DNA of 63,558 bases, filler included, from Rozella allomycis CSF55 (lineage: Eukaryota), in assembly GCA_000442015.1 (NCBI GenBank). It is 17 parts of 17 records of this genome, joined end to end, with 100 filler letters (N's around TTAATTAATTAA, not from the genome) between each part and the next. Parts side by side here need not be neighbours in the genome. Positions count along the whole stretch, not along the records: positions 29,720 to 38,004 come from KE560680.1; 16 more parts are not named here. One strand, written 5' to 3'. Below are positions 11,712-63,558 of this stretch, piece after piece (within the stretch, counting starts at the first letter, position 1; each line of letters begins with the position of its first letter). The position numbers and the translations under genes are program-made. The notes under the pieces are model-generated. The model was not told the origin of the DNA, made no database searches, and saw nothing but the letters and a program-made list of their open reading frames with translations.

Positions 11712-11811
11712 NNNNNNNNNNNNNNNNNNNNNNNNNNNNNNNNNNNNNNNNNNNNTTAATTAATTAANNNNNNNNNNNNNNNNNNNNNNNNNNNNNNNNN
11801 NNNNNNNNNNN
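11712..11811. other. Artificial contig linker N44-TTAATTAATTAA-N44 (first of 16)
   Basis: Identical 100-nt spacer with stops in all six frames, also starting near 14681, 15949, 17931, 24533, 26005, 27452, 29620, 38005, 39446, 43744, 45434, 48882, 50799, 56364 and 62123. Confidence 0.98.
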
Positions 11812-18168: not shown

Positions 18169-18823
18169 TTAACCGTTGATTGTACAATCCATTGGCATTG
18201 GCCGTTTAGTAAAGTCGGGCATATAGGTTTTTTCCTTTACTTCTCCCATCAAAGTATCTTTCATTCCGGCTATACCTATTTTGAATATCACTTACGCTCT
18301 AGTGGCTTTTCTTCAGCCTGTGGAAAATCAATAACAGCGCCAGTATCTAATGAGATCCTCACGCGTTTAACCTGCCCGCTTTCTGGATCTTGGATGCATT
18401 TGTTAATAGCTTCACATGCCTTCCCAGTTAAGGGGTCAACAAGAGCAATTTGGCGCGCATAATATGGCCAATTCAAATTTATATGTGAAATATGAACAGC
18501 TTTTTCGTCTTTTGGTTTTGGCAAAAGCCTTCTTTGCAAATTGAAGCCAGAAATAGTGACTTGATTGTATGTCCTCAAAATATCTGTAACAATTCCATGG
18601 CGGCCCTTGTTTTTTCCGTGAAGAATTTCAACCTATTTGTTAAATTGTCAAGTTTTACCTATATGATACAATAAAACATATTTACCACGTCGCCCTTTGC
18701 AAATAGCCATTCATTGTCTGGAATTTCTGGGCCAGCGCGAACTCTATGTCTTCTAACAAACCTATTGAATTGATATGTGAATGGCCTGATTTTGTATAAC
18801 TTTTTAGTTATGGTGGCCCCCAT
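18169..18823 (-). CDS. MRPL24: Mitochondrial ribosomal protein uL24m (MRPL24/Mrpl40)
   Basis: Spliced KOW motif W.FAKGDV|VEILHGKNKGRHGIV, then HISHI..IALVDP..G and RVRISLDTGAVI. Introns 18633-18685 (compound) and 18270-18295. Start codon uncertain. Confidence 0.85.
18633..18685 (-). other. Compound intron of two abutting mini-introns (27+26 nt)
   Basis: GTAAATATGTTTTATTGTATCATATAG|GTAAAACTTGACAATTTAACAAATAG; both must go to restore the KOW motif. Confidence 0.85.
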
Positions 18824-19117
18824 ATATGGAAAATGGAAATTTCGGCTGGCCTTGCAGCGGGACACATATTTTTTTGCGGGAAATATAATCTAATCGGTTC
18901 CTGCCATTTCAAAAATTTGAAGGTGGAGAGTTGGAGACTTGGAGTTGTTCATCGATGGGGAAGTTTCAGAGATTTCACCATACTATTGTCCTTTCAACCA
19001 TTGCCGTAATTTACTTGAAGTTATAACGAATAAAATAATCAAAATTGAATATTAAATAATTTTTAATGCGTGTCTTGCATGCTATTTAAAGTTTTCTTAA
19101 AAGTTGAAAGAAATTTC

Positions 19118-22100
19118 ATGAGCTTGACAATTTGGTGTAATATTGATTTTGAGGGTAAACTAGGCACGGGTAATGTAAAAGAAACAAATTCCTTTATTAT
19201 TGAAGAACTCAATAAAAAGATGCCGTTTAAAAATATGTCATGGAAGTCAACTTTAAGCACACTTTCTCTTGGCCACCGAAACTGGACAAATAATGAATCT
19301 CTTGACGTCCACTTTACAGAAGAGCGGACTTTAGCAAATTCTATTCCTGTTGACTCAACGTATCCTGTGTACTCACAAAGTCATCCAATATGCCATATTT
19401 ATGTTATCGACTGTGATGTAATAAAACTTGATTATTACGAGTAGGATGTAGACATATATAAAAATCAATTGAAGAATCAAATCAAGGGATGGGTTGGTAG
19501 AAAGAATGACCATGTGATTGTACACTTTTCGAGGACTGAAGCATCACGAAACAAGTTTAATTTGAGATTTGGGGTTTTGGATAAACTAAAGTCTGATTTT
19601 AACGATAAAAGAGACAGATGTGTGCAAATCAGACAATTGGAGTTGTTGGATAGTGAGATGTGGTCTGAAGTGATGAAGAGACTGAGTGAATTAATTTTGG
19701 CTTGTTTTGGTTTTTATATAATGAATATGGAAGATGAAGTGAAAAAGATTGAGGCGCAAAAAAGTCTTCCGGGGTGGAATTTCTGTTCGTATTTTTCAGT
19801 GAAAGAATCGATGGCGTTAAATTATATTTCAATGAAAATGTTTGATGAATCTTTAATTATTTATGAAGAGCTAGATGCAATGTTGCAGTATTATATTAAT
19901 GACAAGGAATTTTGGTTGAAGACGTTTATGAAAAATGATTTTAAAGAAGAGGAGGATTTTAGCAAAACAAGAAATGAAATTTATGAATCTTCAATTTCTA
20001 TTTTCGATTTTCTTTCTTACGTCTTTAAAAGAAAACTTGAATTGTTTTTGCAAATGAAGGATTACAAACTTGTTTTCCTTCGATCAATTGAGTTTTTTCA
20101 AAGAATATTTCAAATTGCAAAAGAGAAGCTTTCAGAAACTTTTGTTTATTCTTGGATTTATTCTCAATGTATGAAGATTCTTGATAAAACAATGAAATGT
20201 GTTCTGGTCAGAGAACAGGAATTTGCTAAATCAACTTTTCTGTTTTATTCTTTGAGAATTTTAGAATCGATTGGTTCTTTACTCGGCTATCTCCCAAAAG
20301 GGAAGAATTTGTTGTGTTGCCGTGAACCAGGGTCAGTCATCCTGATTAAGCTTTCAGAAGAAGTAATTGGGGAATTACGAAATAAATTGACAAACGACAA
20401 TAGTTCATTTGATTCTTTATATTTGGTAAATTTATCGTATTAAATTGAAAGGATTTAATTCAAATGATTGTCAAAAGTGCCAATTTATGCGGTAGACAAA
20501 GGTTGGAGAACTTGGCATTGAATAATTTATCCTATTTGCATGCGATTAGAGATAATCATAAAGAATCAATAAAAATTTATGATGAATTAAAGAATTACTA
20601 TTTGAAACAAGGTTGGTATTCTTTGGAAAGCGACATTTTAATAAAATTGGCTAGAAACTTGAAGAGTAATTCTGAATTTTCAAAGTAACGCTTTTATTGA
20701 TGAGGTAAAAGATACGCGAGCACTTGCATTTCTTTGATCAGTAAAACACAATATTTAATGAATGATGCGATTCATTATTTTACTAAAGAATTGATAGACA
20801 TTGCTCATTCAATTTCAAATGGTATTTTATTATATAAATTTTAAAAAGATGTTTATTCAGAATTTAAAGTTTTTCAAATCAAGAGTTTCAAAAAGGATTC
20901 ATTGGACACTTTTGATGAATTCCTTTATTTTGACATTTCCATTGTTAATCTTTTGCCTTTTGTAATAAAATATAAAATAAATTTAAAAGAATGTTCCATT
21001 TGATAGCATCGTCCTGGTTTTGCTCGGGACTGAAAATGAATTGATTTTTAAAAGTCAAGGCGGATTAGACCCTGGCGAAAACAATTTAACTTTAAAATGT
21101 CCAGACATTTCTCTAGTAGGAAATTACGTTTTGGAAAAAATAACACTTTCATTGGGAAAAATTCATTTCAGCTACAATTTTCTATTACATGGGTCTAAAG
21201 TGATTTTTCAGCGCACAATTCCAAAATGGTTTCTTAATGTTCAAGTCACTCTTCCTACTGAAATAAATTTGGATGATTCGCCTTCTTGCAGATGGATCAT
21301 CAGCCAGTTCAATGAACCTTTAAAAGAACTGACTTTCTCTATATTAAACGATGTTGACATTTTCCANACTTTCTATGTTGACATTTTCCAAAGCGAAATT
21401 ATTTCAAAATCAAACTCTATTGAAAGAAAATTAAGTCTGATTGATGGGAAAGTAGTTTTAGGTGATTTTGAAGCAGGATCACAAATCTACTTTGACACTT
21501 TTTACAATAAAGGTTTGCCGCCAATTTTAAATCAAGTAAATTTCATTAATAAATTTGAAAGGTGAAAGTGGATGTTTCTTTTATCAACAGCCATGGGGCT
21601 AAAACCACTACTATAAATTACTTTGATCTCGAACCATTCTATCCAATTAATTTAAACCTTTCATACTATTTTTCATCAAAGTCGTACGTCAATCTTCAAT
21701 TACTCATTCAAGATTGATGTTGGAATATCAAATAGAAAATATAAGCAACGATACATTGATAATTGAATCAACTGACGCTGAAACAGCAATAGATATTAAA
21801 ACTGATTATTTCAAAGATTCATTAGTAAACAATGTTAATTTCTCATAAAGATTATTCCTTCAAAAAGCTCTTCTACCCTTGGATTGCTCATTTCAAACGT
21901 GAATGACAAACCTTGTTCTGAATGGCTTCCAAACAACGTAAAGTTGAAATTTAAAGTTTCAAATATTAAAATTCAAATATCAAACGCTCTGGACGAAATT
22001 ATCAAACAATTTAGAAACAAGCCAGAATATCATTGGCTACGATTAAAGTTCAATGAAATATTAGCCACCAATTACCTCGAAGATTATTTTCTACATCACG

Positions 22101-22731
22101 GATGTCTCACCCTACCCACTATCAATTTGGAAGATGAAAAAATAACAATTTGGGAGTCAATCGTCAAAGTAAAACTCTACTTTCATCCGTATTAGAAAAT
22201 GGAGCAAGCTGCTCTTGATAAGAATGTCTCTTCTTTAATGACACTAAATGTTAATCTTCCTTCATGTCAGGTAAGAACTTTCCTCCGCATTAAGAGTCCC
22301 TCATTTCGTCTAAAATTGTACTGAAATCCAAAAACAGTGAGGTTTTCGTCGGATCACTGATAAAATTAAGTTACTCGTTTTCCCTATCAAGCTGCCTTGA
22401 TACAGAACTAGAATTTTCGGCAAAATTGGAAATCAATCGTAACCACTGGGTTGTGTGCGGATGCATCTCAAAGAATTTCAAGCTTACAAATAATCAATCC
22501 TTTGACTTAAATATATCAGTAATTCCGCTAAAGACAGGCTACCTGCCCCTACCAGGAGCAAATGTCGAGTGTTTGAATGATTCCACTTGCCAGACTGTAA
22601 TGACAACCAATGGTAAGCAAATTTATGTTACTGTGCCAAATACGAAACCATCCACATATTTTCTCGGATCCATTCTCAATGGTTCCAACATGATGAAATC
22701 GCCTTCTGTGTTTTCGATTGGTCAAATGTAA
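19118..22731 (+). CDS. TRAPPC10: TRAPP II subunit Trs130/TRAPPC10, about 10 tiny introns
   Basis: VLDKLKSDFN...RCVQI, LPGWNFCSYFSVKESMA, YEELDA and C-terminal W.VCG...IPLKTGYLPLP. Confidence 0.88.
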
Positions 22732-29000: not shown

Positions 29001-29776
29001 CAAAAAAGGGTAATCTATTAAAGCTTGGGCTAGAAAACTAATCTAGAGCCAAAAAAGATTTTCTTTAAATCGCCAACCGGACGGGAAGTTTATAATTGTT
29101 GACAAATTTCTTCACACAAAACCACTGTTTTGTATCTTTATCATTTTTTGACATAAGTTGAAAAATTGTCAGGGCTTGCACCCATGTTTGAGGTTATTAT
29201 AACTGAAATTTTTTTTCTCCAAGGGTGTAATGTAAACCTTATCGAATCATCTGTATCATCTGCATCTGATAGAGTCTATCTCCAAAGCCTATGTTGACCA
29301 TATAAGAAGAGCTTCCTGGGAGCTTACCCAGGTTATTTATCATAAATAACNATTTTATACCTTCGTTTTAAATTATAGTATAAATAACCTAACAACGCGC
29401 AAATGTCTGAAAACACTCACGAATCAATGTTACGTGATATAAAAAGTAAGCAGGATGATAAAGATGTGACTACATCGATTTTAACTCAGACCAGAGACAA
29501 AGATGAGAAGAAAAAGTCATCGACAGAAGTATTATGTTAATACAAGGGTATTCGCTTACTGTTATAAAAGGCACCCATGTAATTTTTTTTTCTTCACTTC
29601 CTTTAAAATCTTTAGACTTNNNNNNNNNNNNNNNNNNNNNNNNNNNNNNNNNNNNNNNNNNNNTTAATTAATTAANNNNNNNNNNNNNNNNNNNNNNNNN
29701 NNNNNNNNNNNNNNNNNNNAAAAAAGTAACAATAATAACAAATAACTTTATTAATAATTATTGTGATGAAATAAAT

Positions 29777-32700
29777 TTATTCGTATTGGGATAAATCCAG
29801 TGTGAGGATGGCAGAACCATTAACTTCTTGATTACGATATACACCAACAAGAGAGTCGGCCTTTTCATATAATTGCCTCTTTAAAGAAATAACGATAAAC
29901 TGAGGTGATTTGTGATCTAATTTAATCTCATTAGAAAATCCTTACCATTTATGTCATTGTTCTCTCCATCTACTTCATTTTCTCCATTCCCTTCTCCAAC
30001 TTGTTCATCACTCACTCCCCTATTTCTTTGTTGTTTATTGTTTGATAGATTCCTTAGATATCTAGCCACTTTGGCAACATTAGAGTTGTCTAAAGCAGCG
30101 TCAACTTCATCTAGAACAAAAAACGGAGAAGGTTTAAAGTTTTGAATAGAAAACAAGAGAGCCAAAGCCGCGACTGTTTTCTCACCACCCGAGAGATCAT
30201 CAATGTCTCTGAATCTCTTTGTGGGAGGAGTTACATTGAATTTGACACCAGAGAGATAAGGTTCCTATTTGATGTGATGAGAGGAAAGATTACGTCTAAA
30301 TCTTGAAGTGACAGAGAAGCTGAACCACCTAGAGGAAAGTTTTGTGATTTTGTTAATTCCTTGTAAATGTGATCAATTGAATCTTGTAGCACTGTAAAGC
30401 AACTCATAAAAGCCTTAAACCTTGAGTTAAAAATAATTGAAGAGATTACCTAATTAAGACTTTAAATACTATTGATTACCTAGTTTAACCCCTATAATCA
30501 TTGATTACCTAGATTATTACTTTAAATACTATTGATTACCTAGTTTAACTCCTATAACCATTTGATTACCTAGTTTAACCCTCATAACCATTGATTACCT
30601 AGTTTAATCCCTATAACCATTTGATTACCTGGATTGTTGAATAATTGAAAATTCTTGTTTGATAGATTTAGCATTCTTTCTAGCCAATTCAAAAGAATCA
30701 TTTGATTTCTTGAATTGATTTTGAAATTCATTAAATTTGTTTAAAGCTTTTAAATTTGGTGATATTTTTTCTAAATCATTTTGTAGAGATTTTAATTTTT
30801 CTTGAAATTCAATTTCTTTAGTTTCAGTTGAATTAATTTTAGAATTGTTGTCAAGTTTAGAGAAATCTAAGATTGCATTTCCATTAATTAAAGATCCAGA
30901 TGTTATGGGAATTTTTATTTGTTGAGAAGCGCATTTAATCAAGACAGATTTCTTTTCTTCTACTAGTCTTTCTAATAGAGCTTCTCTTGATGTTTTGTTC
31001 TTTATACTTGTTTCATAGTTTGTTAATAATCTGTGAACTAGTTTTTTCTTCTTGTTGAATTCTTCTTGAATGTTTTCATATTCTTCTTGGAATTCATTCA
31101 ATTTATTCAAATTTTCATCCAAATTGATTTGTGAAATTTCCTTTTCTTTTTCAATTTTATTTAAATTTTTATTCTTCAATTCTAAATCATTTTCCAAATC
31201 ATTAATTGATTTCTTCAACTCTTCAAATCTTTTATAAAAATCATTCATCAAATTATTTTCAAACTTTAAATCTGACGAGACCTTTTTATAGGTAGGGTTA
31301 ATAATTTACCTATTATATAGGTAGGGATACTATTGTTACCTATAGTATAGATTGACTTTAACTGCTTACCTATCGTTAATCATACCTTCACTATGTTACC
31401 TATTGTTAACTTTTACCCCTTTTGCTTACCTTTGATTTTAATTGATTTAGTTCAAATAGTTTAATCTCTTTTTGCTTCACTTCTAGATCAATATAATCTC
31501 TAATATTTTCAATCTTCAATCTCTCACAAAAACTTTTAAATATTTCATCTTGTTTTAAAAACAAAGATTTCTGAATCTTTTTAAATTCATTTACAATTCT
31601 ATTCAATTCTTTATTTTTAAATTCTTCTTCATTCATCAATTCATTTATATTTTTATTCAACAAATTTAATTCATTTTCCAACAATTTAATCTTTCCTTCC
31701 AAATTGTTTATTTCTTGTTCAACATACACCAACTTTGATTGTAGATTAGCTATTTGATTATACATGGGTTCTAAATAACTAACCTTTTTCTTTTCTCTTG
31801 ATATTTCATTCAAATTGGCTATCAATTCATTTCTCTCATTTTTCATTTCTTGTATATTTTGTTCATCCCATGTAGATCCATCAAAGCCACTAGATCCACC
31901 AGAGATCAACCCAGATTTATGGATCACTACTCCATCCAACGTAATCGATTTCACTCCAAGTCTTTTATTATAATTCACATCCTTTGCTATCTCCACATCA
32001 TCACAAATAACTGAATTGCCACACGCATACTGCACTGCTACATGGAATTTACTCTCACATCTGATAACATCAATCGCCAATCTACAGCCATCAAGATTTC
32101 TCAAACTTTCATTAATTGGTTTCACATAAAGTGAGTCCAATGGCAGAAATGTAGCTTGGCCTATTCTCTGTTCCTTTAAATAGTTCAAACATTCAACTGC
32201 TGTTTTTTCTGAATCCACCAATATTGAATTCAAATGTTTTCCAAGAACAATCCCACAAGCTACTTGATATGTTTTATTTATTGGTTTAACTGTTTCCTTT
32301 AATCTTCCATAGACGCCTTTTACAAAGTTAGTGATTAATTACCTATTAAATGACAAGTACGCTCTTTACCTATTAAATGAAGTAGTACGCGCTTTACCTA
32401 TTACATGATAAATACTCTACTTACCTATCACATTATAAATAAGTACACTATTTACCTATTGTTACATTTCAAACCTTTTAATTACCTGAATAAATTCTCT
32501 TCATGTTGCTGATCGCTTCATTCATTTTACTCTCCTTCAAACTAGTTTTAATATTAATTTTAGCTTCACTCAAATTCTCCAAGACTAAATTCAATCTCTC
32601 TTGATACTGAATCTCTTGCTCATTCAACGCAACTTTAATCTTTTTATTTTTCTCAATCTCATTCTCCAATTTATTTTTTTCTTCCAATAGATCTATTCTA

Positions 32701-34123
32701 TTTTTAGAATATTTTTCTCTTCTTATTCTCAGATTTGAAATTTCAGAATTAATCTTCTCTCTTCTTTCTTTCTTTTCATCTATTCCAATAAACTTTATTT
32801 CTTGTTTAATCAAATCTATTTTCTTATTCAACTTTTCCAATTCTTGTCTCTCGTTAAAGTTCATTTCATTTTCTTGTTTATTCAATTCATTAAATTCTCT
32901 TCTCTCTTGTTCATTCATATTCACTTTATCTATCTTTATTTCTTCAATCTCTAATTCTATCCTCTTAATCTCTTCTTCCCTCTCTTTAATCTTTTTCATC
33001 TTTTCTTCCTCTTCAATCTCCATCGCCTCCCTCTTCATTTCCAAATCTCTCTTCTTTTCATTCAAATATCTAATCTGCTCCTTAATCTTATTCTTTTCTG
33101 GTCTCTTTTCTTCAATCCTCTTTTCCTCTTCCTTTATACTCTTCTCCAATATCAACTTTTCTTTAAATATTCTGTTTTGATCCTTCTTCTTTTCCTTCAT
33201 TCCAACCTCCTCCCTCTCGTAACTCTCTTTATTCTTCTCCACTTGCTCTCCATGATACTCAATCTCCTCCTTCAACGACTCTACATTCTTCTCTATGTGA
33301 TACAACCGCCACAACAAATATTTTATCGTAATCTCATCCCGCTCCCTCTCCAACTCTGCATACCTCTCCGCCTCTTCCTTCTGCTCCTGGTACTGCCGCA
33401 TCTCAACATTCATCCCCTTCCTCTTACTAAACGCAACTGTCGACTGCTCAGTCGCTCGCTCCATCTCCTCCTTCAATCTATCATACTCCTCCTTAAACTC
33501 AATCGACCTATAATCATCCCTCAACCCTCTTCTTACCCTGATATCTGCTCTATAAAGTTACTCAACTCTTTCGGATTCCTCTGCGCTATAGCCTCCACAT
33601 CCCCCTGGAACACCAAAAAGTTTCGCAACTTGACCAATATATTCTCCTTTTCCAACTCACCATTATACACCCCAGCTGAAACAACCTACGCTCTCTCAAT
33701 CACCTACTTACCTTGCCATCAATCCTATACTCACAATGCCCATTCAACTGAACCCTACAACTTTCAACAAACACCCTTACGATCGGCTAAACATCACACT
33801 CTCTCCCTCAAGCTCATACTCCATCTCAACAACAGCCTTGTGCGCATCCTTGCTCTTGTCGCCACACCGGTACACAAGCTCCTTCAACTGCTTCGACCGC
33901 AAATGCATCGCTTGCACCCCCAACACAAATGAAAGCGCATCCATTATATTCGATTTGCCTGTTTTCATCGCCAACGTATTTTACCTAGATATGATGATGA
34001 AATACATCCGCTACCTGATCCGTTTGGTCCTATAATACACGTAAAGTCGCTAAAGGGCCCGATCCGGTGTCGGCCGTTATAGGATTTGAAATTCTCTACA
34101 TACAAACTGTTCAAACGGCCCAT
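29777..34123 (-). CDS. SMC1: Cohesin subunit SMC1, 9 introns (4 compound)
   Basis: [29 protein letters not shown], hinge [41 protein letters not shown]. Introns 33959-34014, 33755-33780, 33686-33711, 33508-33536, 32317-32485, 31282-31429, 30421-30628, 30265-30293, 29917-29945. Confidence 0.96.
30421..30628 (-). other. SMC1 compound intron: 7 abutting mini-introns (30,29,30,31,29,30,29 nt)
   Basis: Each unit starts GTAATC and ends AG; six internal TAG|GTAATC junctions. Removal gives QQSR-FKAFM. Confidence 0.9.
31282..31429 (-). other. SMC1 compound intron: 5 abutting mini-introns (30,30,30,30,28 nt)
   Basis: Internal ATAG|GTAA junctions at exact 30-nt spacing. Removal gives [13 protein letters not shown]. 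Confidence 0.9.
32317..32485 (-). other. SMC1 compound intron: 6 abutting mini-introns (30,31,27,28,27,26 nt)
   Basis: Five internal ATAG|GTAA junctions. Removal gives hinge RIYSG-VYGRL. Confidence 0.9.
33959..34014 (-). other. SMC1 compound intron: 2 abutting mini-introns (30+26 nt) inside Walker A
   Basis: GTAGCGGATGTATTTCATCATCATATCTAG|GTAAAATACGTTGGCGATGAAAACAG; removal gives GPNGSGKSN. Confidence 0.88.
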
Positions 34124-34359
34124 TTTTAGGTTCACGAAAATTCAGAAATTAAATTTTATATACCTCGACAAAAAATATGGCCATGTATTTATTAATTAAC
34201 TGTGAGAGTTGTTAAGCGAAAGCGAGAAAAAACCTAAATATCAAATATCGAAACTTATTGTAACGTTAAACCTCGTGTTCTATATATACACATTCTGATC
34301 CCAAAATAGAATAAAACGTTCGGGAATCAGGAGGATCAAACAAAACACTCCTGTTTCAC

Positions 34360-35681
34360 ATGCTGCAAGTTCCCCTCCACCAGTTCATCGACCCGAATTT
34401 CCACCCCGATCCCTCCGAATGCATAATCGCAACCATCCNGCGATACTTTTAAGGAAAGCCAAAGAATCTACGTCGAATTTCCACCCCGATCCCTCCGAAT
34501 GCATAATCGCAACCATCCTGCCATGCAGCCCGCCCATGGAAATCAAGCGGGTGTACTGGTACTCTACGTGGTTCATCAGCTGCAACGACATTACTAAATA
34601 CGTCGCATTCTGCTACATCCAGCAAACAGGCAATTCAATTCACAACATGCACAAGTTCGACGAAGGCGTGTTCAGCGATTTGAGACAGTACAAGATTGGC
34701 GTGCATGCTGTCATGGAGGAAAACAGGTCGGAATTCTTGTCGTTTTTGCTAAAGACTGGGTGTGTGAAGACTCAGAAGAAGCAAAAGGTTTACATTTGGG
34801 ATAAGATTAATCTGGATTTGCTGGTGCAAGACGCTACTATGCGGGAGTTGAGGAGAGGCAGTGGGTCGTCGGCTAGTAATAGGAAACGGAAGTCTGTTGG
34901 GTCCATCATGCTGAATACAAACATGTCGCCCTATGGATATACAGAACAGTTTATTCTTCCTTTTGAACCGGCATTTAGTGAAACGACAGACGGGACAATG
35001 CCATTGACACCCATTACACCTCTAGGGACAATATACGAAGCCCCACAAATGGACCAACAGAACAGCGAGCCGCCAAGTATTGACATATCTCAACTATTTG
35101 CAATGGAAGGTCAATTCACTCCGTACGCATCACAAACTGCTCCACTTTCTTCTTTACCTCCATCTCTATTAACATCCACATCAGAGTTTTTTGATCAAGG
35201 TTTGCTCCTTCCGCCTCCATATTCTCCAAGCACGCTATACACCTTTGATGAATTTCCCGCAAGAAGACCGCAAAATCGTAGACATTCAACCACCTCTCTT
35301 CCAGACTGGTCAAAAGGATCAGGCGATCGACCATATAAATGCCTAGTGCCTGGCTGCTTTCGCGAATTCAAACGTATGGAGCACTTAAAACGCCACGGTA
35401 GAATACATACTGGGGAGAGGCCGTTTTCATGCAACTTTCCAGGCTGCAACAAGTACTTTTCGAGATCGGATAACTTGGCTCTGCATCAGAAAACTCATGA
35501 GAGAAAGGGTTTGGAGTTGATTGAGGAAACCAATTTGCACTTTAACAACAATGTAAATCTGCCAATGAGCAGCAAGGTCGATGTAACCTTTTTTGACTCT
35601 GCTACCGATCTTCCTTTACTTGATTCTCTAGAGATCAAAGATAAAGGCAGTTCTCCTATAATTAACGCGCCAATTTGGTAA
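34360..35681 (+). CDS. STE12: Ste12-like transcription factor (STE domain plus two C2H2 zinc fingers)
   Basis: [29 protein letters not shown] and [27 protein letters not shown]. The 5' end is blurred by the assembly overlap at n34439. Confidence 0.88.
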
Positions 35682-35814
35682 GCTTCCTGATTTGTAAATA
35701 AAAAATATTGGTATATAAGTATTTTTATATCATTAAAAGATTGTATCAAGTGATTTGGGATAAAAAGAGACCAGTTCAATAGAAATTGTAGCCCATAGGT
35801 ATAAAACGGGATTT

Positions 35815-35856
35815 ATCGGACGGGGAGTTTACGACCCGGACATCAGAAACGATTAT
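35815..35856 (+). repeat. Dispersed copy of the 40-bp repeat at 15875
   Basis: ATCGGACGGGGAGTTTACGACCCGGACATCAGAAACGATTAT, next to an assembly break (n35863). Confidence 0.85.
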
Positions 35857-36142
35857 TGGCATNACCGTTGTAATTCTCATAAGTAATTATATCTCCATCT
35901 TCATCCTTCGTATTTCTCAGTTTATGCAGAAGTTTTTGGTTTTTTGGTGCCAACCATCGTTCGAAGTTCTCTTGTAGACTCATTTGTTGACAGGGGTATT
36001 GTAATGTAAACCTTATCCCTTTGACACCCAACTTGGCTTGCGATGAGCTGTTAATATAGTGTAATTATTATTGCTAAATACACTCTTGATTTCACTATTC
36101 AACAAAGAATAAAGTTCCTCCAAATCCTGATCACTTGGTACA

Positions 36143-36535
36143 TCAAATGGAACATATTCTTTTGAAATGCAATTCAAAGGAAGACGAGATCAAAATCAAA
36201 AATGACTTGACATATTGCTCATTAGTTTTCACTTCACACATCATTGGATACAAGTAATTTTTTGATTGATACTCTTGGATTGTCCATTCTAACATTGGAT
36301 CACTCTTTCTATGTTTGTAGCTTGAAACAAAACGAATGACAATTGCCTTTGACTCTCTTTTTTTGCACGCGGTATCAAATATCGCCTCATAAATGCCTTT
36401 TGCGATATCAAGCGCTTCGGTAGTTAAATCGACAGTTTCATCATCAAAATAACTGCAACTGCTATCACTTGGGATTTCACACCCATTGTAATCGGAGTCG
36501 TAGCCTAACATGCGTATGTTTGTTCTTCTATCCAA
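36143..36535 (-). pseudogene. Copy 1 of a duplicated ORF segment shared with the D5-like fragment
   Basis: About 36151-36457 is near-identical to about 37110-37416 (KKRESKAIVIRFV.SYKHRKSDPMLEWTIQEYQSKNY.YPMMCEV). Confidence 0.6.
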
Positions 36536-36579
36536 AATTTGTAAGTTTCAGGATCGAATTAAAAATAGTTTATTTATGC

Positions 36580-36845
36580 AAATACAATTCCTCTTTTCAT
36601 TCAAAGCACGATGTCTAGTAAGCCTGATTACGTCTTGAAGCATATTTTTAATGTGGTACTATTTTATTATTTACTATTTACTTACTTCAAGGCCTACATA
36701 CATCGCATTGACGCAATCATCGCTAACACCTCCAGGTACATCGTTATCGACAGCCAAAAATGCCAATTTTCGTTTCAGCTCTTCTTTCGTTCCCATATTA
36801 TTTTCAAATGACATAAAATGGAGATTATCTGGCTTTAGGATATCT
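36580..36845 (-). pseudogene. TADA1: Fragment of SAGA subunit Ada1/TADA1 histone-fold region, intron-containing
   Basis: Spliced translation SFENNMGTKEELKRKLAFLAVDNDVPGGVSDDCVNAMYVGLE|YHIKNMLQDVIRLTR with a 27-nt intron at 36659-36685. Not in the ORF track. Confidence 0.65.
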
Positions 36846-36968
36846 TTCAAAATAAAATAATCTACATACTCGATTTAGTTGACATTGGTGATACCGAAGA
36901 TTCGCTAAAGGAATGATGCTACCTAAACCAATACGGTGATTCTGATAAAACGGGAGTTTGCTGTGATT

Positions 36969-37417
36969 CTAGTACTTTCGAACTACAATAGAAGAAGGAA
37001 CATTCTTGAATGCGGTGAATTGTAAGGATTCGATATTCAATACGCCATTGGCAAAACCAATAAAGGATTTATCGGTTTGTAGAAATTTGAACTTGGAAGA
37101 TGCATCATGGACATGCTCTTTTGAAATGCAATTCAACGGCAAGACCAGATCAAAGTTAAAAAATGCCTTGAAATATTGCTCATTATTATACACTTCACAC
37201 ATCATTGGATAAAAGTAATTTTTTGATTGATATTCTTGGATTGTCCATTCTAGCATTGGATCACTCTTTCTATGTTTGTAGCTTGGAACAAAACGAATGA
37301 CAATTGCCTTTGACTCTCTTTTTTTTGCACGCGGTATCAAATATCGCCTCATAAATGCCTTTTGCGATATCAAGCGCTTCGGTAGTAATCGACAGTTTCA
37401 TCATCAAAATAACTGCN
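36969..37417 (-). pseudogene. D5-like primase/helicase N-terminal fragment (virus/Polinton-type), frameshifted
   Basis: FKFLQTDKSFIGFANGVLNIESLQFTAF resembles the D5_N F-x-N-G-V-x-(D/N) motif. Indels relative to copy 1. Confidence 0.5.
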
Positions 37418-38104
37418 CAGATTTTTCGAATGTCAAGTTAGAATAAGGCAGGATATATCTTCTTAGTAATTCATGAATTACTTAGAAGATATATCCATTT
37501 GTAAACTTCTCCAGTGCCTTGAACTCTCACATAGCCATTCTCACAATCCTCCATGTGTTCAACTAGTACAACAAAAGGTTTTCTTTTGGTTTCTGTGTTG
37601 CTTCTTTTTAGAACAATAGATTCAAAGACGTTAAGAATCCTCTTTTCTCTTGCTTTGTCTATTCTTCCTCCACTGTGAGAGAAGCAACTGTAACTACTGT
37701 GCCTTGCTTATTATTAACATAGATACAGATGTGATCNGATCTTCAATTGATTCGTAATTTCTTTTCTTAGCAATAATCTTTCTGGCAGCCTCTGCGGCCT
37801 TGGCACCTTTCAAAAGATTCTTGAAATGAGTGATTGAGGTGTTGTTAACATTGATCAAGGGAGAAGCAGCGGGGTNAATCTTCAATTGATTCATATTTTC
37901 TTTTCTTAGCAATAATCTCTCTGGCAGCCTTTGCAGCGTTGGCACCTTTCAAAAGATTCTTCAGATGAGTGATTGAGGTGTTGTTAACATTGATCAAGGG
38001 AGAANNNNNNNNNNNNNNNNNNNNNNNNNNNNNNNNNNNNNNNNNNNNTTAATTAATTAANNNNNNNNNNNNNNNNNNNNNNNNNNNNNNNNNNNNNNNN
38101 NNNN

Positions 38105-45210: not shown

Positions 45211-45534
45211 AGAAAACAAGTAAATTTATTTATATGCGTTTTTGTTCTTGAGCGTTGATTAAAGGTGCGTTGAGTTTGTGGGCTTAGCCACATGAAAGTT
45301 ATCCGATACCAGTCTTGCGATTAATGCNAGTTATCCGATACCAGTCTTGCGATTAATGCGAGGACGACCTATGGGACGATTCCGTTCGATTGCAATTTGA
45401 CGACGTCTTTCAGTTCTAGCAGCAGCTTGAGCGANNNNNNNNNNNNNNNNNNNNNNNNNNNNNNNNNNNNNNNNNNNNTTAATTAATTAANNNNNNNNNN
45501 NNNNNNNNNNNNNNNNNNNNNNNNNNNNNNNNNN

Positions 45535-47049
45535 TGTGAAAATGAAGGAATTCACTGGGGCAATCTTTTTCCATAGCTTCCAGCAAACTGTGAAACCATT
45601 CAAATGCCTAATCAATGTTTAAAAATACAATTAATTACATTTTTGTCCCTGCATATCCACACAAAATGCAATGTTTGAAGCTTGGTATTGTCTTTTATAT
45701 TTCTGGTTTTCCTATACCAAATGTGTTTTAACACAGAAGCGAATGGTGTCACTCCAATACCTGCGCCTACGATCAAAGCTGAATCATATTGAAAAACGTC
45801 TTCTGTGGGTGTTCCATAGGGTCCGTCAACGTATATTTTCGGTAAGTACCATCCATTGTATGTCTTGACTTGGTCTTTCTTCTTGAAGCAGCCCAGTCTA
45901 TTAGCAAGTGCACTGGTCCAATCTCCGCAAACCCGTATATGAACTGAATGATGATCGTCTTCGGGGCATGATGAAAGTGTAAACGGATGCCATTGATACT
46001 TTGATATTTCAGGGATACAGATAAACACATATTGTCCAGGTTTATATGAAAATGAGGGCTTTTGAAATTGCAATTCAATTACTTTGCTTGGATGTTCAAT
46101 TATTTTAGAAATGTATGTGAGCCTACGTGCCCTGACTTCTCTTAATCCCCTTTCGATCAAAAACAAAATAAATCCTGCAAGTGCATATTTCCAGGTAAAG
46201 TAACCTTTACAAACTCGCTCTTCTGTTCTTACAAAACATCCAATTCCGTGCAGGAACACCAATATTGACCAAACAATTGCCAAATGATGTGTATAGTAGA
46301 AAATCTCAAACTTTTTTCTTCTGATTTGGAACATGGCACCAGTAAACATTAAAAGCTGGATGATCNACCAATTCCGTGCAGGAACACCAATATCGACCAA
46401 ACAATTGCCAAATGGTGTGTATAGTAAAAAATCTCAAACTTTTTTCTTCTGATTTGGAACATGGCACCAGTAAACATTAAAAGCTGGATGATCAATAGTA
46501 ATAATCCAGTAACGCCTGCTGGATGTTGAAAGAGTATGTAATAAGGAGAAAACCAGCCAAGATTCTGCAATGTACGTAGATTCAACATATGACCACATGT
46601 ATGAACTACAGAAAAGAAGCTGATCATGTAACCGACTTGGCGATGGAAGAACAAGTTGCTGTCGACTGGCACGATTTTGTTGATGAACGAAGACCTAACG
46701 TGAGAAAGCAAATTACGGCATATGGGGAAGAATATCATTATCGTACCGACATGTAAATTGTTTNGCCGACTTGGCGATGGAAGAATAAATTGCTGTCGAC
46801 TGGCACTATTTTGTTGATGAACGAAGACCTAACGTGAGAAAGCAAAATGCGGCATATGGGGAAGAATATCATTATCGTACCGACATGTAAATTGTTTGCA
46901 CTACCACGACTTATCCATACAGTCCACCCAAGTGGGTTGTTCAGTCTATTCAGTTCCGTGTCGTTCTTCTGGTTGAAAAAGCCTTGCATAAATATCAATA
47001 CATTGAACGCAATCCAAAGAATCCAAAATATGACTGTAGAGAGCTGCAT
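45535..47049 (-). CDS. NADPH oxidase catalytic subunit (gp91phox/NoxA-B type), 3' truncated
   Basis: Heme histidines FFHRQVG..VVHT and YYTHHL..LHG; WHPFTLSS, DGPYG, VGAGIGVTPF. Broken by overlap artefacts at n46366 and n46765. Confidence 0.9.
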
Positions 47050-47163: not shown

Positions 47164-48122
47164 ATGCGCGTTGCCTTCCTTAGTCTTCTAACAATTATTG
47201 CCGCACAGAATACTACTCAAGTCGACTTTTGCACAGCAAGTGGTCAAGCATTAATGGATGGTACACAAAATCGCGGAGGATCGTGCTCAAATACGATTCA
47301 AGGAGTAATTTGATATTTTAAATAGGATTATAGTCATTACCGGATGTAACGAAAATGGTGTCTACTATCATTTTATCGCCATCAAACGGTGATCGAATTG
47401 AAGAGGGGACNTGCACAGAATACTACTCAAGTCGACTTTTGTGCAGCTAGTGGCCAAGTTTTAATGGACGGTACACAAAATCGCGGAGGATCATGCTCAA
47501 ATACGATTCAAGGAGTAATCTGATAATTTAAATAGGATTATAGTCATTACCGGATATAACGAAAATGGTTTCTACTATCATTTTATCGCCATCAAACGGT
47601 GATCGAATTGAAGAGGGGACGCCCTTTGTCATTAGTGTCAAGACTGTCAATTTGCAATTGGGATTCTTTGATAATCCACAGACAGAATATTATTTAAGTC
47701 CACAGACCTTGAATAGTAACGGAATCATTGAAGGTCACCAACATGTTGTTGTCCAAGCATTGACAGACGGTACGGTACCACCCAGCGCACAGGACTTCAA
47801 ATTCTTTAAAGGCTTAAACGGTGAATCTGCTGACGGTGTTCTTAGCGTTAATGTAACGGAAGGTATTGCTGGAGTTGGATCTCACAGAATATGCACAATC
47901 ACTGGGTCAAGAGGACATCAGCCAGTTTTAATGCCAGTCGCACAAAGAGGATCACAAGATGATTGCATTAGAATTGAAATCGTAAAGAAGAAGAATGGAA
48001 AGGGAGGAAAAGGATTCAATAATGTTGCTGAAGACGTTACCGAAGGTGAACTTGAAAGAGTGCGACATGGTCGTAGAAGAGAAGGAAGAAGAAGGTTTAG
48101 AGACAGAAGACACAGGGATTAA
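47164..48122 (+). CDS. Conserved fungal-type secreted Cys-containing protein of unknown function
   Basis: Signal peptide MRVAFLSLLTIIAA; DGTQNRGGSCS, GH.HVVVQ, FFKGLN, HQPVLMPVAQRGSQDDCIR. 5' part duplicated around n47411. Confidence 0.75.
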
Positions 48123-50898: not shown

Positions 50899-52917
50899 AT
50901 ACGAGAATTAAGTCGTTCTTCTAGCCTTGAACGACAGTCGGCATTCGATAAATTCTTTTGAAATAAAGTTAGAAATGTTAAAGAGGTACTAAAATAACAA
51001 GAGCTGTAAATTTTATTGGTCTTCACTATTTTTAAAGAAATCCGCGAGCCAGGTCTGGGTGCTGAACTTTTCATGTGGCGAATCTTCTAAAATATTGATG
51101 TTGTCGATGAAGAATGAATTATCGGGGCGAAATTTTGAATAGAATGGCATGCAGAATAACTTGATTCTATCTGCATCGCTGACAAATATATTTAATATAT
51201 AAATAAAACTTGTGACATCCTTTGGAATTTCAAATTCATATTCAGCAAAGTTTTCACCGACATATGAGTAAATGTATGCTTTTGTCATTAAATTGTACAT
51301 TGAATCATTGAGTTTAGGAAACATGGGATGGTTTATAATATATTCAAACACTTCTGAAGACTCTGTTGTAACTATTGGGACCCATGCGTAAAAGCACTCA
51401 AATAGATTAAGTCTTGGTATCAAACGATCAATCATGTCAAATTTTTTATTAGTTACCGCAGCCTTAAAAAGATCAAGATATCTAAATTGTTGTCTCCTGA
51501 TAGAAAGGATCCTCAAATATTCCATGGCCCCGGCGATGTGTAGCTTAGCAAAGCCACAGTGGCATCTATAAAACGAGACAGGTATTTCCCTGTCCAGATA
51601 ACAGCTACATTTACTTTCGGCATATTCCAAGTCATCTGAATTAAAATTATAGTCGTAATCCCTGCGCAATAAATTGTTTGCATATTCCTTAATAACTTCA
51701 TCGGTCAGTTCAAATTCTTCATCTTCACATTCACAAGGCCACCCTCTTTCATGATTTGCATCAAAACAATTCATCCAGGCAAGTGGATCGTCAAAATTAA
51801 GGTCTTCAACGGAAAGATGATTCCCATCGGTGCTGTAAGAGATATCAGAATCTGTTACATACTTGTAACGATCATCTAATATACTAAGATCATCTTCAGT
51901 AATTTCATCAATTACGAGCATAGCAAATTTATCAAATGATTTATCTAGTAAGGTAAATGTGACCTCCATAAAGTATTTTTTCAATCCAGTGACTCGAGAT
52001 AAGAGTATATCAACTAAAGCATCCTGAAAATATGTATAAACATAATTTGAATAGAAATAATCGTTAATTTCTTGTTGACTCATTGTCTTGCTTTTTTCAG
52101 TAAGCAACCATCGATAAGTGTGGGGCTTCATGTATCTCTCATAAACAGATGATGATAATTGATCACAGAAATATTTGAAGATATCACAAGAATATTCTTT
52201 AATGGGGCAGTTTTGATTTTTACAACGCATTGAATGATTAACCATATTCTGTTGAACATATTCATGATCAACTACACGTGGTAAAAAATAATTGAAAATG
52301 TCTTCACAAGATAAAAGATCGCTATCCAATAGTAGCATATAATTATCATCGCTAATTGCATAAGATCGAAAAATTAAACGCCCGTCAAATTCTTTTACAA
52401 TACGGATACCTGCTTTTAGCACCAATTTCTTATCTAGGGAAATTAGTTTCTCTTTCAGCAAACAATAATGCAAAATTTCTCTTTGCTTCAGATTTAGTTT
52501 GGTTTTGTCATTTAGTATCAGTTCCATTATTGTATTCACGCATTTTGGAATATTTGTGTCTCTGACTAACCTATATATATAATCATATGATTCATTCAAA
52601 TTATTCAACTCCCTTGAAATGGTCATAACANTATTTTGGAATAGTTGTGTCTCTGACTAACCTATATATAAAATCATATGATTCATTCAAATTATTCAAC
52701 TCCCTTGAAATAGTCATAACAAAGAAAAGGTGGGACACTTGACCCAAGCGGATAGTTTCTTGACGGGTTGTAAAGCGTATAATATTTTCCCAGATTTCGT
52801 ATGGAAAATCCATATTTTTAGAATCAATATTCAAATTCTTTAAAGGTAAGCTAGGCAACGATAATAAATACGTCATGAATGTCGTTCAAGGCTAGAAGAA
52901 CGACTTTATTCTGGTAT
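50899..52917. mobile_element. Non-autonomous TIR element carrying an F-box gene
   Basis: 50899-50936 and 52880-52917 are inverted repeats (36/38 identical) with TA at both outer ends. Confidence 0.7.
51013..52813 (-). CDS. F-box protein with Cys-rich and helical/ankyrin-like C-terminal region
   Basis: MDFPYEIWENIIRFTTRQETIRLGQVSHLF is an F-box. It joins the 537-aa ORF across the overlap artefact at n52631. Intronless. Confidence 0.75.
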
Positions 52918-62222: not shown

Positions 62223-63558
62223 CGCACAATAACGAGTCCGTTGCACATTGGCTAACAAGGCAAAATAAATTAAACCAACGCTGCAACTGGGATGTACCGA
62301 AGACAGATTTGTTAAAAGAGTTCCTCGCTCCATATTGGAAGTCCGAAAATGTCTCCAAGATTTTCCAACGGCACCCAACAGCTGTTTGTGATTCTGTTCA
62401 TTCACAGAGTTTTCAAGTCTTATTCTCTTCTAATGATCTATATTCCGTTGCCATTGCTTGTTTCCATTCATAAGCTTCTGCGCCACCTAAAGCTTCCTTA
62501 ACATTCCTTGGAATTTCGTTAGTTCTACCTGTACTTAGTAATGCCACGCCTTTGAAGTTAAATAATTCGGCATAGTCTTTCCGCTCTATTTTCGTAAATT
62601 TCGTTGCCTGGGTTGAATGGTTTCGTTTTTAACATTTGCATTCTCCTCATCATTCTTATTCTGTCAATGAATAATTGAATTAACCAATAATTTGTTTAAA
62701 TCTTCTTTACAATTATACTGTTTATTTGTTGATGTTTCTTGATTCATAATAACTTCGTCGACAATTTCATTGTTCAATAAATCTTCTTCTAAACTTGTTT
62801 ACTTCATATTGTTTAGTTCGTGATGATTATTAGTAAATTGAACATGAGTCGATGCAATTACTCTACTTGTCTTTCCAACTCGTAATCTATAATTTCTTTC
62901 GGATAAGTCATAACCAACTAAAATGTGCTCCTCTGTGTGCTCGTCTAATTTTTGTCTTTTCATTTTCGGAGAATCGGAATATAGACGAAACATGTTATCC
63001 CTATTGTTCTGAAATGTGCCACCGAGGGTTTCGTGCCTGTAAATGCTTCCACAGGTGTTATGTTTCCTCGTATGCTGGTTGGTGACCGATTATGCACATA
63101 ATGCACCATCTCTCCCCAGCACGTGTCTGGTAATCCTGCTGGCCTCAACAAACAACGTGCCGCAGCCATCAATAAACCATTTTTTAGTTCAGCTGTTCCT
63201 TCATTTCCGATGTGTATTTGTCTGTCAAATAATGTATGATTCCCTTTTCTCTAAAATATTTCTTGAGTTCCCCATCAACACACATCCCCCTCTATCGCTT
63301 CTAACAGTTTGACCTTCCGTCCTGACTGAGTTTCAATAAATGTAATGATTTCTCTTAATGTAACTTTAGCTTCAGCTTTTCCCTTCAACAATCGTATCAA
63401 ACACATTCTTAAAAAAATATCAATGACACCNGTATCAAACACATTCTTAAAAAAATATCAATGACACCATGCACATACCACTTTCCACTTTTCGTTTCCA
63501 CTTACATTGGCACACACAAATCTGTATGCAATACTTCTCCAATGTCTTTTGCTTGAGG
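62223..63558 (-). mobile_element. Degenerate Ty1/copia integrase-to-RT region
   Basis: AARCLL..AGLP..CWGE..NRSP...TPVEAFTGTKPSVAHFR, LVGYD, then PRNVKEAL..WKQAM..E..SL..N and VGCRWK, with many stops and frameshifts. Confidence 0.88.

Follow-up and report, generated by a model that had tools for sequence, protein, structure and literature searches.

Arrays of abutting mini-introns in the SMC1 gene of Rozella allomycis suggest how very small introns multiply

Stwintrons are nested twin introns of filamentous fungi, in which a splice signal of the outer intron is split by the inner one, and the two must be removed in a fixed order. In Paramecium, tiny introns carry stop codons, so retention is caught. 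Zhuo and colleagues are said to have described, in PNAS in 2007, human introns born from tandem arrays, in which minisatellite-like repeats carried the splice sites. In recursive splicing, known from Drosophila, mammals and the fungus Cryptococcus neoformans, an acceptor abuts a donor (AG/GTAAG; the slash marks a splice boundary here and below) within one annotated intron, which is removed in steps, a usable site being restored each time. For fungi, two sources (bioRxiv 10.1101/224170; PMC8605326) gave one case of such splicing at zero-nucleotide exons, the 375-nucleotide (nt) intron of C. neoformans BOT1, which is split in two. Tiny-intron genomes, as two further sources describe them, occur in ciliates, microsporidia, dicyemids and myxozoans (PMC13644364; PMC2633312), and introners, according to bioRxiv 10.1101/2020.10.14.339549, are introns that multiply within a genome as dispersed, near-identical families. 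Here we describe a 63,558-nt stretch of Rozella allomycis CSF55 DNA (assembly GCA_000442015.1; hereafter the window), in which an annotated intron of the cohesin gene SMC1, termed array A2 (31282-31429, minus strand), was found to be composed of five abutting units, each with the length and the ends of a whole intron.

A2 was tiled exactly from GTAA to AG by its five units (Table 1). The five unit strings quoted in the original prediction were the exact reverse complement of 31282-31429, and its statement that ATAG/GTAA recurs every 30 nt held at all four internal junctions of the window sequence. GTAA stood at the start of every unit (5/5), ATAG at the end of units 1-4 and AAAG at the end of unit 5. 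The abutment of acceptor and donor, which is the feature of recursive splice sites or ratchet points, occurred four times inside this annotated intron of 148 nt, a length that is short in absolute terms and about five times the local intron norm. In the whole window, TAGGTAA was observed 21 times against 5.9 expected, none of 100 shuffles reached 21, and 17 of the 21 matches were internal junctions of mini-intron arrays. Among all GT..AG segments of the window that measured 110-214 nt (29,800), only 23 could be tiled by GT..AG units of 24-32 nt; all of them lay within the three long arrays of SMC1 (A1, A2 and A3), four extending 29 nt into the exon after A3, and when the 148 nt of A2 were shuffled 20,000 times, no shuffle could be tiled. 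The tiling pattern of A2 is real and far beyond chance. Tandem Repeats Finder reported 2.4 copies only at A2 (31280-31350). The RNA fold of A2 with its flanks was no better than that of shuffled sequences (z -0.86; 38 of 200 shuffles folded equally well), and a search against Rfam gave zero matches at E up to 1 across 29720-34438.

The arrays shared with recursive splicing the acceptor that abuts a donor, and stepwise removal, which in A2 we infer, would be a second likeness. In the known cases, usually one or a few such sites subdivide a long intron, of 375 nt in BOT1 and of kilobases or more in animals, whereas the long Rozella arrays were tiled in full by 4-6 consecutive junctions into tandem, copy-number-variable units of normal intron size. 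In the human tandem-array introns, as reported, each repeat unit also has splice sites and the repeats define introns; those introns reportedly show alternative splicing among units in a long-intron genome, whereas in Rozella the unit was a standard intron, the interiors had diverged, and full removal was required for the protein. A narrow length class near 26-30 nt and premature stops upon retention were shared with the tiny-intron genomes. As with stwintrons, more than one consecutive splicing reaction would be needed for one annotated intron, but, unlike the parts of a stwintron, the Rozella units lay in succession and could be removed in any order; the units of A2 abutted, each with its own complete ends, and none interrupted the splice signal of another. 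Introners likewise multiply within a genome, although in the source cited above their near-identical families are dispersed, whereas multiplication in Rozella was local and tandem, and no dispersed family of near-identical copies was found within the 63-kilobase (kb) window. Recursive splicing is the nearest known mechanism and tandem-array introns are the nearest known account of an origin; what differed here was the scale, the complete tiling, the up to seven units in a row, the occurrence at several positions of one gene and the polymorphism. No report of abutting tandem arrays of tiny introns was found in the literature searched, nor was a description of tandem, abutting or duplicated introns or of Rozella intron arrays; an earlier account may be contained in James et al. 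2013 or its supplements.

The gene had been assigned to SMC1 in the original prediction, and the assignment was upheld. The translated open frame upstream of A2 (P0001) matched the Pfam domain SMC_hinge (E 9.3e-28). In a comparison with solved structures, SMC1A ranked on top with 185 bits, followed by SMC2 (74), SMC4 (65) and SMC3 (49 bits). The nearest relatives in a large protein collection were two R. allomycis CSF55 entries, namely a partial model (P0002), identical to the SMC1 described here over long stretches, and a full-length public model of 1187 amino acids (aa; P0011). On these three grounds the gene is, by homology, SMC1, a cohesin subunit, of R. allomycis. The coding region was built from coordinates (Table 1), and its intron positions held, in order, 2, 1, 1, 1, 6, 5, 7, 1 and 1 units. 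The exons upstream of A2 summed to 2388 nt, that is 796 codons, which places A2 in phase 0, as had been claimed. With A2 removed, the frame was collinear with the homologue P0005 across the joint and identical there to P0011. Removal of A1 joined MKRIYS/GVYGRL, which matched the conserved KRIFPGVYGR motif of homologues, and this joint was spanned by the homologues P0003, P0004 and P0005. The claim that a unit of A2, if retained, puts a stop in frame was also borne out, with a stop or a frameshift from every retained unit: the frame stayed open in 0 of 31 retention patterns of A2, in 0 of 127 of A3, in 1 of 63 of A1, and in 1 of 3 of the two-unit array. The model and P0011 were 98% identical over the full length, with two small differing spots, both off the arrays: an 18-nt piece excised by the public model (aa 742-747 of our model) and a different donor chosen for the last intron. 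P0011 matched our model at the array joints, and therefore the public annotation excises every array whole. The partial model P0002 read units 2 and 5 of A1 (32317-32485, minus strand) as protein, and also excised about 210 nt of coiled-coil coding sequence (31579-31789, minus strand) that is kept in homologues; automatic gene models in this genome struggle with tiny introns.

Table 1. Coordinates of the SMC1 coding region, its introns and the mini-intron arrays of the window
Feature	Coordinates	Strand	Size and composition	Phase	Remark
SMC1 coding region	29777..34123	-	10 exons, 1208 aa	 	9 intron positions, 25 mini-intron units; coordinate-built, no internal stop
Array A2	31429..31282	-	148 nt, five abutting mini-introns	0	exact GTAA..AG tiling
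A2 unit 1 (u1)	31429-31400	-	30 nt	 	 
A2 unit 2 (u2)	31399-31370	-	30 nt	 	 
A2 unit 3 (u3)	31369-31340	-	30 nt	 	 
A2 unit 4 (u4)	31339-31310	-	30 nt	 	 
A2 unit 5 (u5)	31309-31282	-	28 nt	 	 
Array A1	32317..32485	-	six units (30, 31, 27, 28, 27, 26 nt)	1	 
Array A3	30421..30628	-	seven units (30, 29, 30, 31, 29, 30, 29 nt)	2	 
Two-unit array of SMC1	33959..34014	-	30 + 26 nt	1	splits Walker A motif GPNGS/GKSN
SMC1 single intron	33755..33780	-	26 nt	 	required for open frame
SMC1 single intron	33686..33711	-	26 nt	 	part of open-frame model
SMC1 single intron	33508..33536	-	29 nt	 	part of open-frame model
SMC1 single intron	30265..30293	-	29 nt	 	part of open-frame model
SMC1 single intron	29917..29945	-	29 nt	 	public model's donor differs here
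Array outside SMC1	18633..18685	-	two units (27 + 26 nt)	0	another gene; sole non-SMC1 array in window

Intron candidates were defined as segments that started with GTAA, joined two reading frames that both stayed open over 40 codons, and would break the frame if retained. Their lengths in the window formed a sharp peak at 26 nt (12 candidates) and 27 nt (11), ranged from 24 to 32 nt, and tailed off towards 32 nt, whereas GT starts other than GTAA gave a flat length background. Two introns of R. allomycis strain S23 are described as short, about 30 nt, in PMC6349667. The array units measured 26-31 nt, with a mean of 29.2 nt against 27.5 nt for single candidates, about 1.6 nt longer on average. 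Since the candidates spanned 24-32 nt, each array unit is a normal-sized intron for this organism. A screen for GTAA introns of up to 130 nt as the sole frame-joiner returned 13 candidates in the window, of which one was the two-unit array at 18633-18685. The rest resembled chance joins, either antisense or intergenic, and among them only the 45-nt candidate at 20962-21006 might be real. No convincing long untiled intron was found among these frame-joining candidates of the 63-kb window, in which only the arrays stand out clearly as “long introns”.

Arrays were present at four of the nine SMC1 intron positions and at one of about 35 positions elsewhere in the window (Fisher p 0.004); the latter count consisted of open-frame intron candidates and includes false positives, and the enrichment refers to one gene in 63 kb. 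The mean best ungapped identity between unit interiors was 0.37 in A2, 0.48 in A1 and 0.56 in A3, compared with 0.36 among unrelated single candidates (703 pairs), in agreement with the statement that the interiors of A2 share little. In gapped comparisons, u4-u5 was the sole related pair of A2 (score 12 against a null maximum of 8), units 3-5 of A1 were related, and A3 contained two interleaved unit families, one formed by units 1, 2, 3 and 5 and the other by units 4 and 6, with interior identities up to 0.91 and Tandem Repeats Finder periods of 29 and 59. As judged from the sequence, A3 is the youngest array, and the three long arrays look like an age series, with A3 young, A1 intermediate and A2 old. 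Between arrays, the first units of A1 (32456-32485) and A2 (31400-31429), both on the minus strand, agreed in 19 of 26 letters with the terminal GT and AG excluded; their score of 9 exceeded the null maximum of 8, yet it was inside the range of whole-window shuffles, and the resemblance is probably due to chance.

The junctions behaved differently from the interiors. In MAFFT alignments of the three long arrays, 18 of 21 junction columns (GTAA plus the last three letters) were invariant, against 9 of 73 interior columns (Fisher p 4.8e-10), and the three variable junction columns were the -3 position, at which the terminal unit of each array had A. Three observations were independent of the definition of a unit, namely AA at +3/+4 in 18/18 units, T at -3 in 15/15 internal acceptors of these arrays, and the lack of any double-length unit. 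In the five arrays, every one of the 17 internal acceptors was TAG, compared with 16 of 38 single candidates, an excess with a probability of 2e-4 even when only about ten independent lineages were counted. The original prediction had proposed that the junctions were kept while the interiors diverged. The contrast between the columns supported this, whereas divergence from a common copy was not apparent for units 1-3 of A2, which may have separate origins. The final acceptor was AAG in each long array (AAAG, AAAG and CAAG), and the internal acceptors were always TAG. The exons after A2 and A3 started with GT, so that AGGT was found on both flanks of these arrays and might provide microhomology for exact array gain or loss. 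Position-weight scores were 9.6-12.4 for the A2 units and, with leave-one-out scoring, 4.2-14.5 (mean 10.4) for single candidates, and the units fell inside the span of the singles; this scoring separated introns from decoys poorly, with its 3' part almost without information, because the splice signals are so short. The motif TTAAC was present in units 1, 2 and 5 of A2 (in unit 5 at 15 nt upstream of the acceptor) and was not found in units 3 and 4.

Contigs from two DNA data sets of different studies (X1 and X2) broke at the arrays and revealed variants with roughly half the depth of their surroundings. In both X1 and X2, the variant contained 21 additional letters at the 5' end of A2, set between two copies of a 10-nt junction motif. 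This amounts to one extra unit of about 31 nt, with a depth of 194 in X1 (single-copy depth about 335-420) and 83 in X2. The first 8 letters and the final ATAG of this extra unit were common to unit 1, and its interior was different. In one X2 contig, 30 nt were added beside unit 5 of A2, recently copied from that unit but ending in another tail, and 1 nt of unit 4 was deleted. In A1, one contig in each of X1 and X2 showed changes of +1, +1 and -4 nt in unit interiors (27 to 28, 28 to 29, and 31 to 27 nt). All four small insertions or deletions (indels) were interior and left the affected units at 27-31 nt, and the two whole-unit differences broke within the junction motif. Unit number varies between variants in one culture, and the exact 30-nt period is not fixed; the 30-nt phase, which had been described as kept, applied to the window sequence but not to the variant, with its 1-nt deletion in unit 4 and its extra units of about 31 and 30 nt. 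The tally of indels and whole-unit differences, with 56 further substitution rows outside it, is too small for a test of selection. By chance alone, all seven junction letters would be spared by four interior indels about 1 time in 3. In A3, a contig joint from 30457 to 30591 skipped 133 nt, with only 30 nt on its shorter side. Over 29720-37400, the contigs from two DNA studies also showed many half-depth substitutions and indels, such as those at 29900-29950 and 33288-33811, which suggests two diverged haplotypes or a mixed culture.

We give a probability of about 0.6 to the reading that A2 is a concatemer of autonomous mini-introns, which would be excised serially across zero-length exons, with splicing at each internal site. 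What is observed is the anatomy, the intron-size regime, a conservation of the junctions in excess of the interiors, and the whole-unit polymorphism; from these sequence features we infer that the internal sites are used in splicing, that selection and not recent origin retains them, and that long introns are poorly spliced here. Each unit would offer the spliceosome its own GTAA donor, a TAG or AAG acceptor and a normal intron length, for which reason removal of the units singly, occasionally two at once and in any order, would be most likely. Since each excision would either restore TAG/GTAA or form the final exon-exon joint, the order would be irrelevant and all paths would reach the same mRNA; an internal donor joined to any acceptor further downstream could not yield a wrong one. 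Whole units would be added or lost when the repeated junction motif slips or undergoes unequal exchange, as the variant suggests. If an internal site decayed by point mutation, an over-long intron of at least 56 nt would arise, twice the tolerated size, and selection would for this reason keep the internal sites intact. The earlier claim of such selection was supported to this extent, with the excess at the junctions and with the normal unit size as a reason, whereas the four indels and two unit differences were too few for significance. It is conceivable, and we offer it as a tentative extension that is rather doubtful, that the Rozella spliceosome handles only introns of about 26-31 nt, which could lengthen only by polymerising whole units, so that the long introns of SMC1 would be “intron polymers” with obligatory serial splicing and with units gained or lost by slippage at TAG/GTAA. 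If this extension were true, SMC1 would display a live, still-polymorphic route of intron multiplication and precise intron loss, and the number of serial reactions might affect the amount of mature cohesin mRNA.

Several observations weigh against serial excision of the units. The public annotation, itself a prediction, excises A2 whole. The copy-number polymorphism means that the arrays are mutable, and youth may explain part of the conservation at the junctions, above all in A3. The conservation test was partly circular, as GT and AG are fixed by the definition of a unit; the position-weight model carried little information beyond GTAA and AG, and branch points could not be recognised. The clearest branch-like motifs (CTAAC and TTAAC) were found in the last units of A1 and A3, which fits removal in one piece too. 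The set of single introns was built on open-frame logic and contained at least one false positive (30209-30234), and the long-intron screen covered 63 kb, so that long introns may occur elsewhere in the genome. No RNA holding the locus was found among the listed runs; one RNA run (X10) yielded 4 records with 7 chance pieces of 18-33 nt that continued unlike the locus and were uninformative on expression.

A rival explanation is that A2 is one 148-nt intron excised in a single step, with the internal GTAA and TAG as unused minisatellite relics derived from a 30-nt intron. We regard this explanation as unlikely, although it comes next in probability. The arrays were minisatellite-like in their variable copy number, with the extra 5' unit recorded in two studies and the extra unit beside u5 in one, A3 was clearly young, and the similarity between units that a minisatellite should show was detectable in A1 and A3; in A2 it was limited to u4-u5, with units 1-3 at background. 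The whole excision in the public gene model is in line with it as well, as is the placing of the best branch-like motifs, in the terminal units of A1 and A3. It leaves unexplained why the interiors of A2 are saturated while the junctions are perfect and the units measure 28-30 nt, why the window had no other evident long intron and a candidate peak at 26-27 nt, and why indels between variants left every unit at 27-31 nt. Considerably less probable is a selected device, in which the multi-unit structure would slow maturation or feed nonsense-mediated decay (NMD) and so set the dose of SMC1. The concentration of arrays in SMC1 and the complete lack of open retention patterns in A2 and A3 would suit it, but stops upon retention follow from TAG/GTAA and AT-rich sequence alone, and the kinetic or NMD control of cohesin dose raised in the original prediction found no support beyond these two features. 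Moreover, one retention pattern each of A1 and the two-unit array remained open, unit number differed among variants of the same culture, which argues against a tuned count, and the enrichment concerns a single gene in 63 kb.

Independent insertions of a mobile mini-intron, introner-like or through reverse splicing, that prefers AG/GT and whose junctions attract further insertions, would account for the mutual dissimilarity of units 1-3 of A2 and for the extra 5' unit of the variant, which was not a copy of its neighbour except at its ends. They would also suit the distribution among other fungi. A metagenome alignment scan returned 36 fungal SMC1 loci with 33-58% identity, none close to Rozella and used as controls only; the position of A1 was uninterrupted in 35 of 35 loci and that of A2 in 23 of 23, so these intron positions are not widely shared. 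The A2 position was checked in the 23 of 36 loci whose match reached about query residue 282 and was a multiple of 3, with L015, L018 and L027 also reaching it but excluded. No chain of more than three AGGT junctions was found in 261 kb of the 36 metagenomic loci, and a single-protein scan of the metagenomes found no Rozella-like relatives. Such insertions are nevertheless improbable, somewhat more so than a dose device, since no copy of a unit was found elsewhere in the 63-kb window above shuffle expectation, the best pair across arrays (A1u1-A2u1) fell within the whole-window shuffle range, and A1 and A3 clearly grew by local duplication. An assembly artefact is the least credible of all, with only a very slight chance of being correct. 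The window does consist of contigs joined by N linkers, and its single-N joins carry artificial duplications; however, 29720-34438, which holds the whole gene, contained no N, contigs of three independent DNA studies covered the flanks, entered the arrays and agreed with the window variant, and P0002, on a separate contig of 2049 nt, read through units of A1.

The multiplication of introns and the minimum and maximum of intron size are old open questions, and the SMC1 locus is a directly testable case, with a graded series of arrays in one gene whose repeat unit is a whole normal-sized intron. A2 suggests how very small introns multiply, its units probably being cut out one at a time. If the units were indeed removed one by one, the locus would be the smallest-scale instance of recursive splicing known, and unequal exchange at a splice-junction motif would offer a simple DNA-level mechanism for intron gain and exact loss. 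In public models the arrays are hidden, each appearing as one “long” intron, and the numbers and lengths of introns are thereby distorted for a lineage that is sister to the microsporidia.

Further features of the window were recorded. Linkers of 44 N, TTAATTAATTAA and 44 N were present at 11712-11811 and 16 further sites; they join separate contigs, and gene order across them is therefore not evidence of linkage. Two-copy, near-perfect tandem repeats with periods of 32-210 nt and a single N at the midpoint were located at 37739-38004, 45297-45359, 46240-46494, 46632-46899, 47203-47620, 52542-52721 and 63393-63468, and these look like unmerged contig overlaps, that is assembly artefacts. At the single N at 34439, the DNA contigs of two runs skipped 80 nt (from 34393 to 34474), which fits the overlap reading. 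A gene at 19067-22728 on the plus strand, which would suit as a reference set for the normal intron type, contained successive single intron candidates of 26-27 nt, located at 19418, 20426, 20685, 21536, 21825 and 22169.

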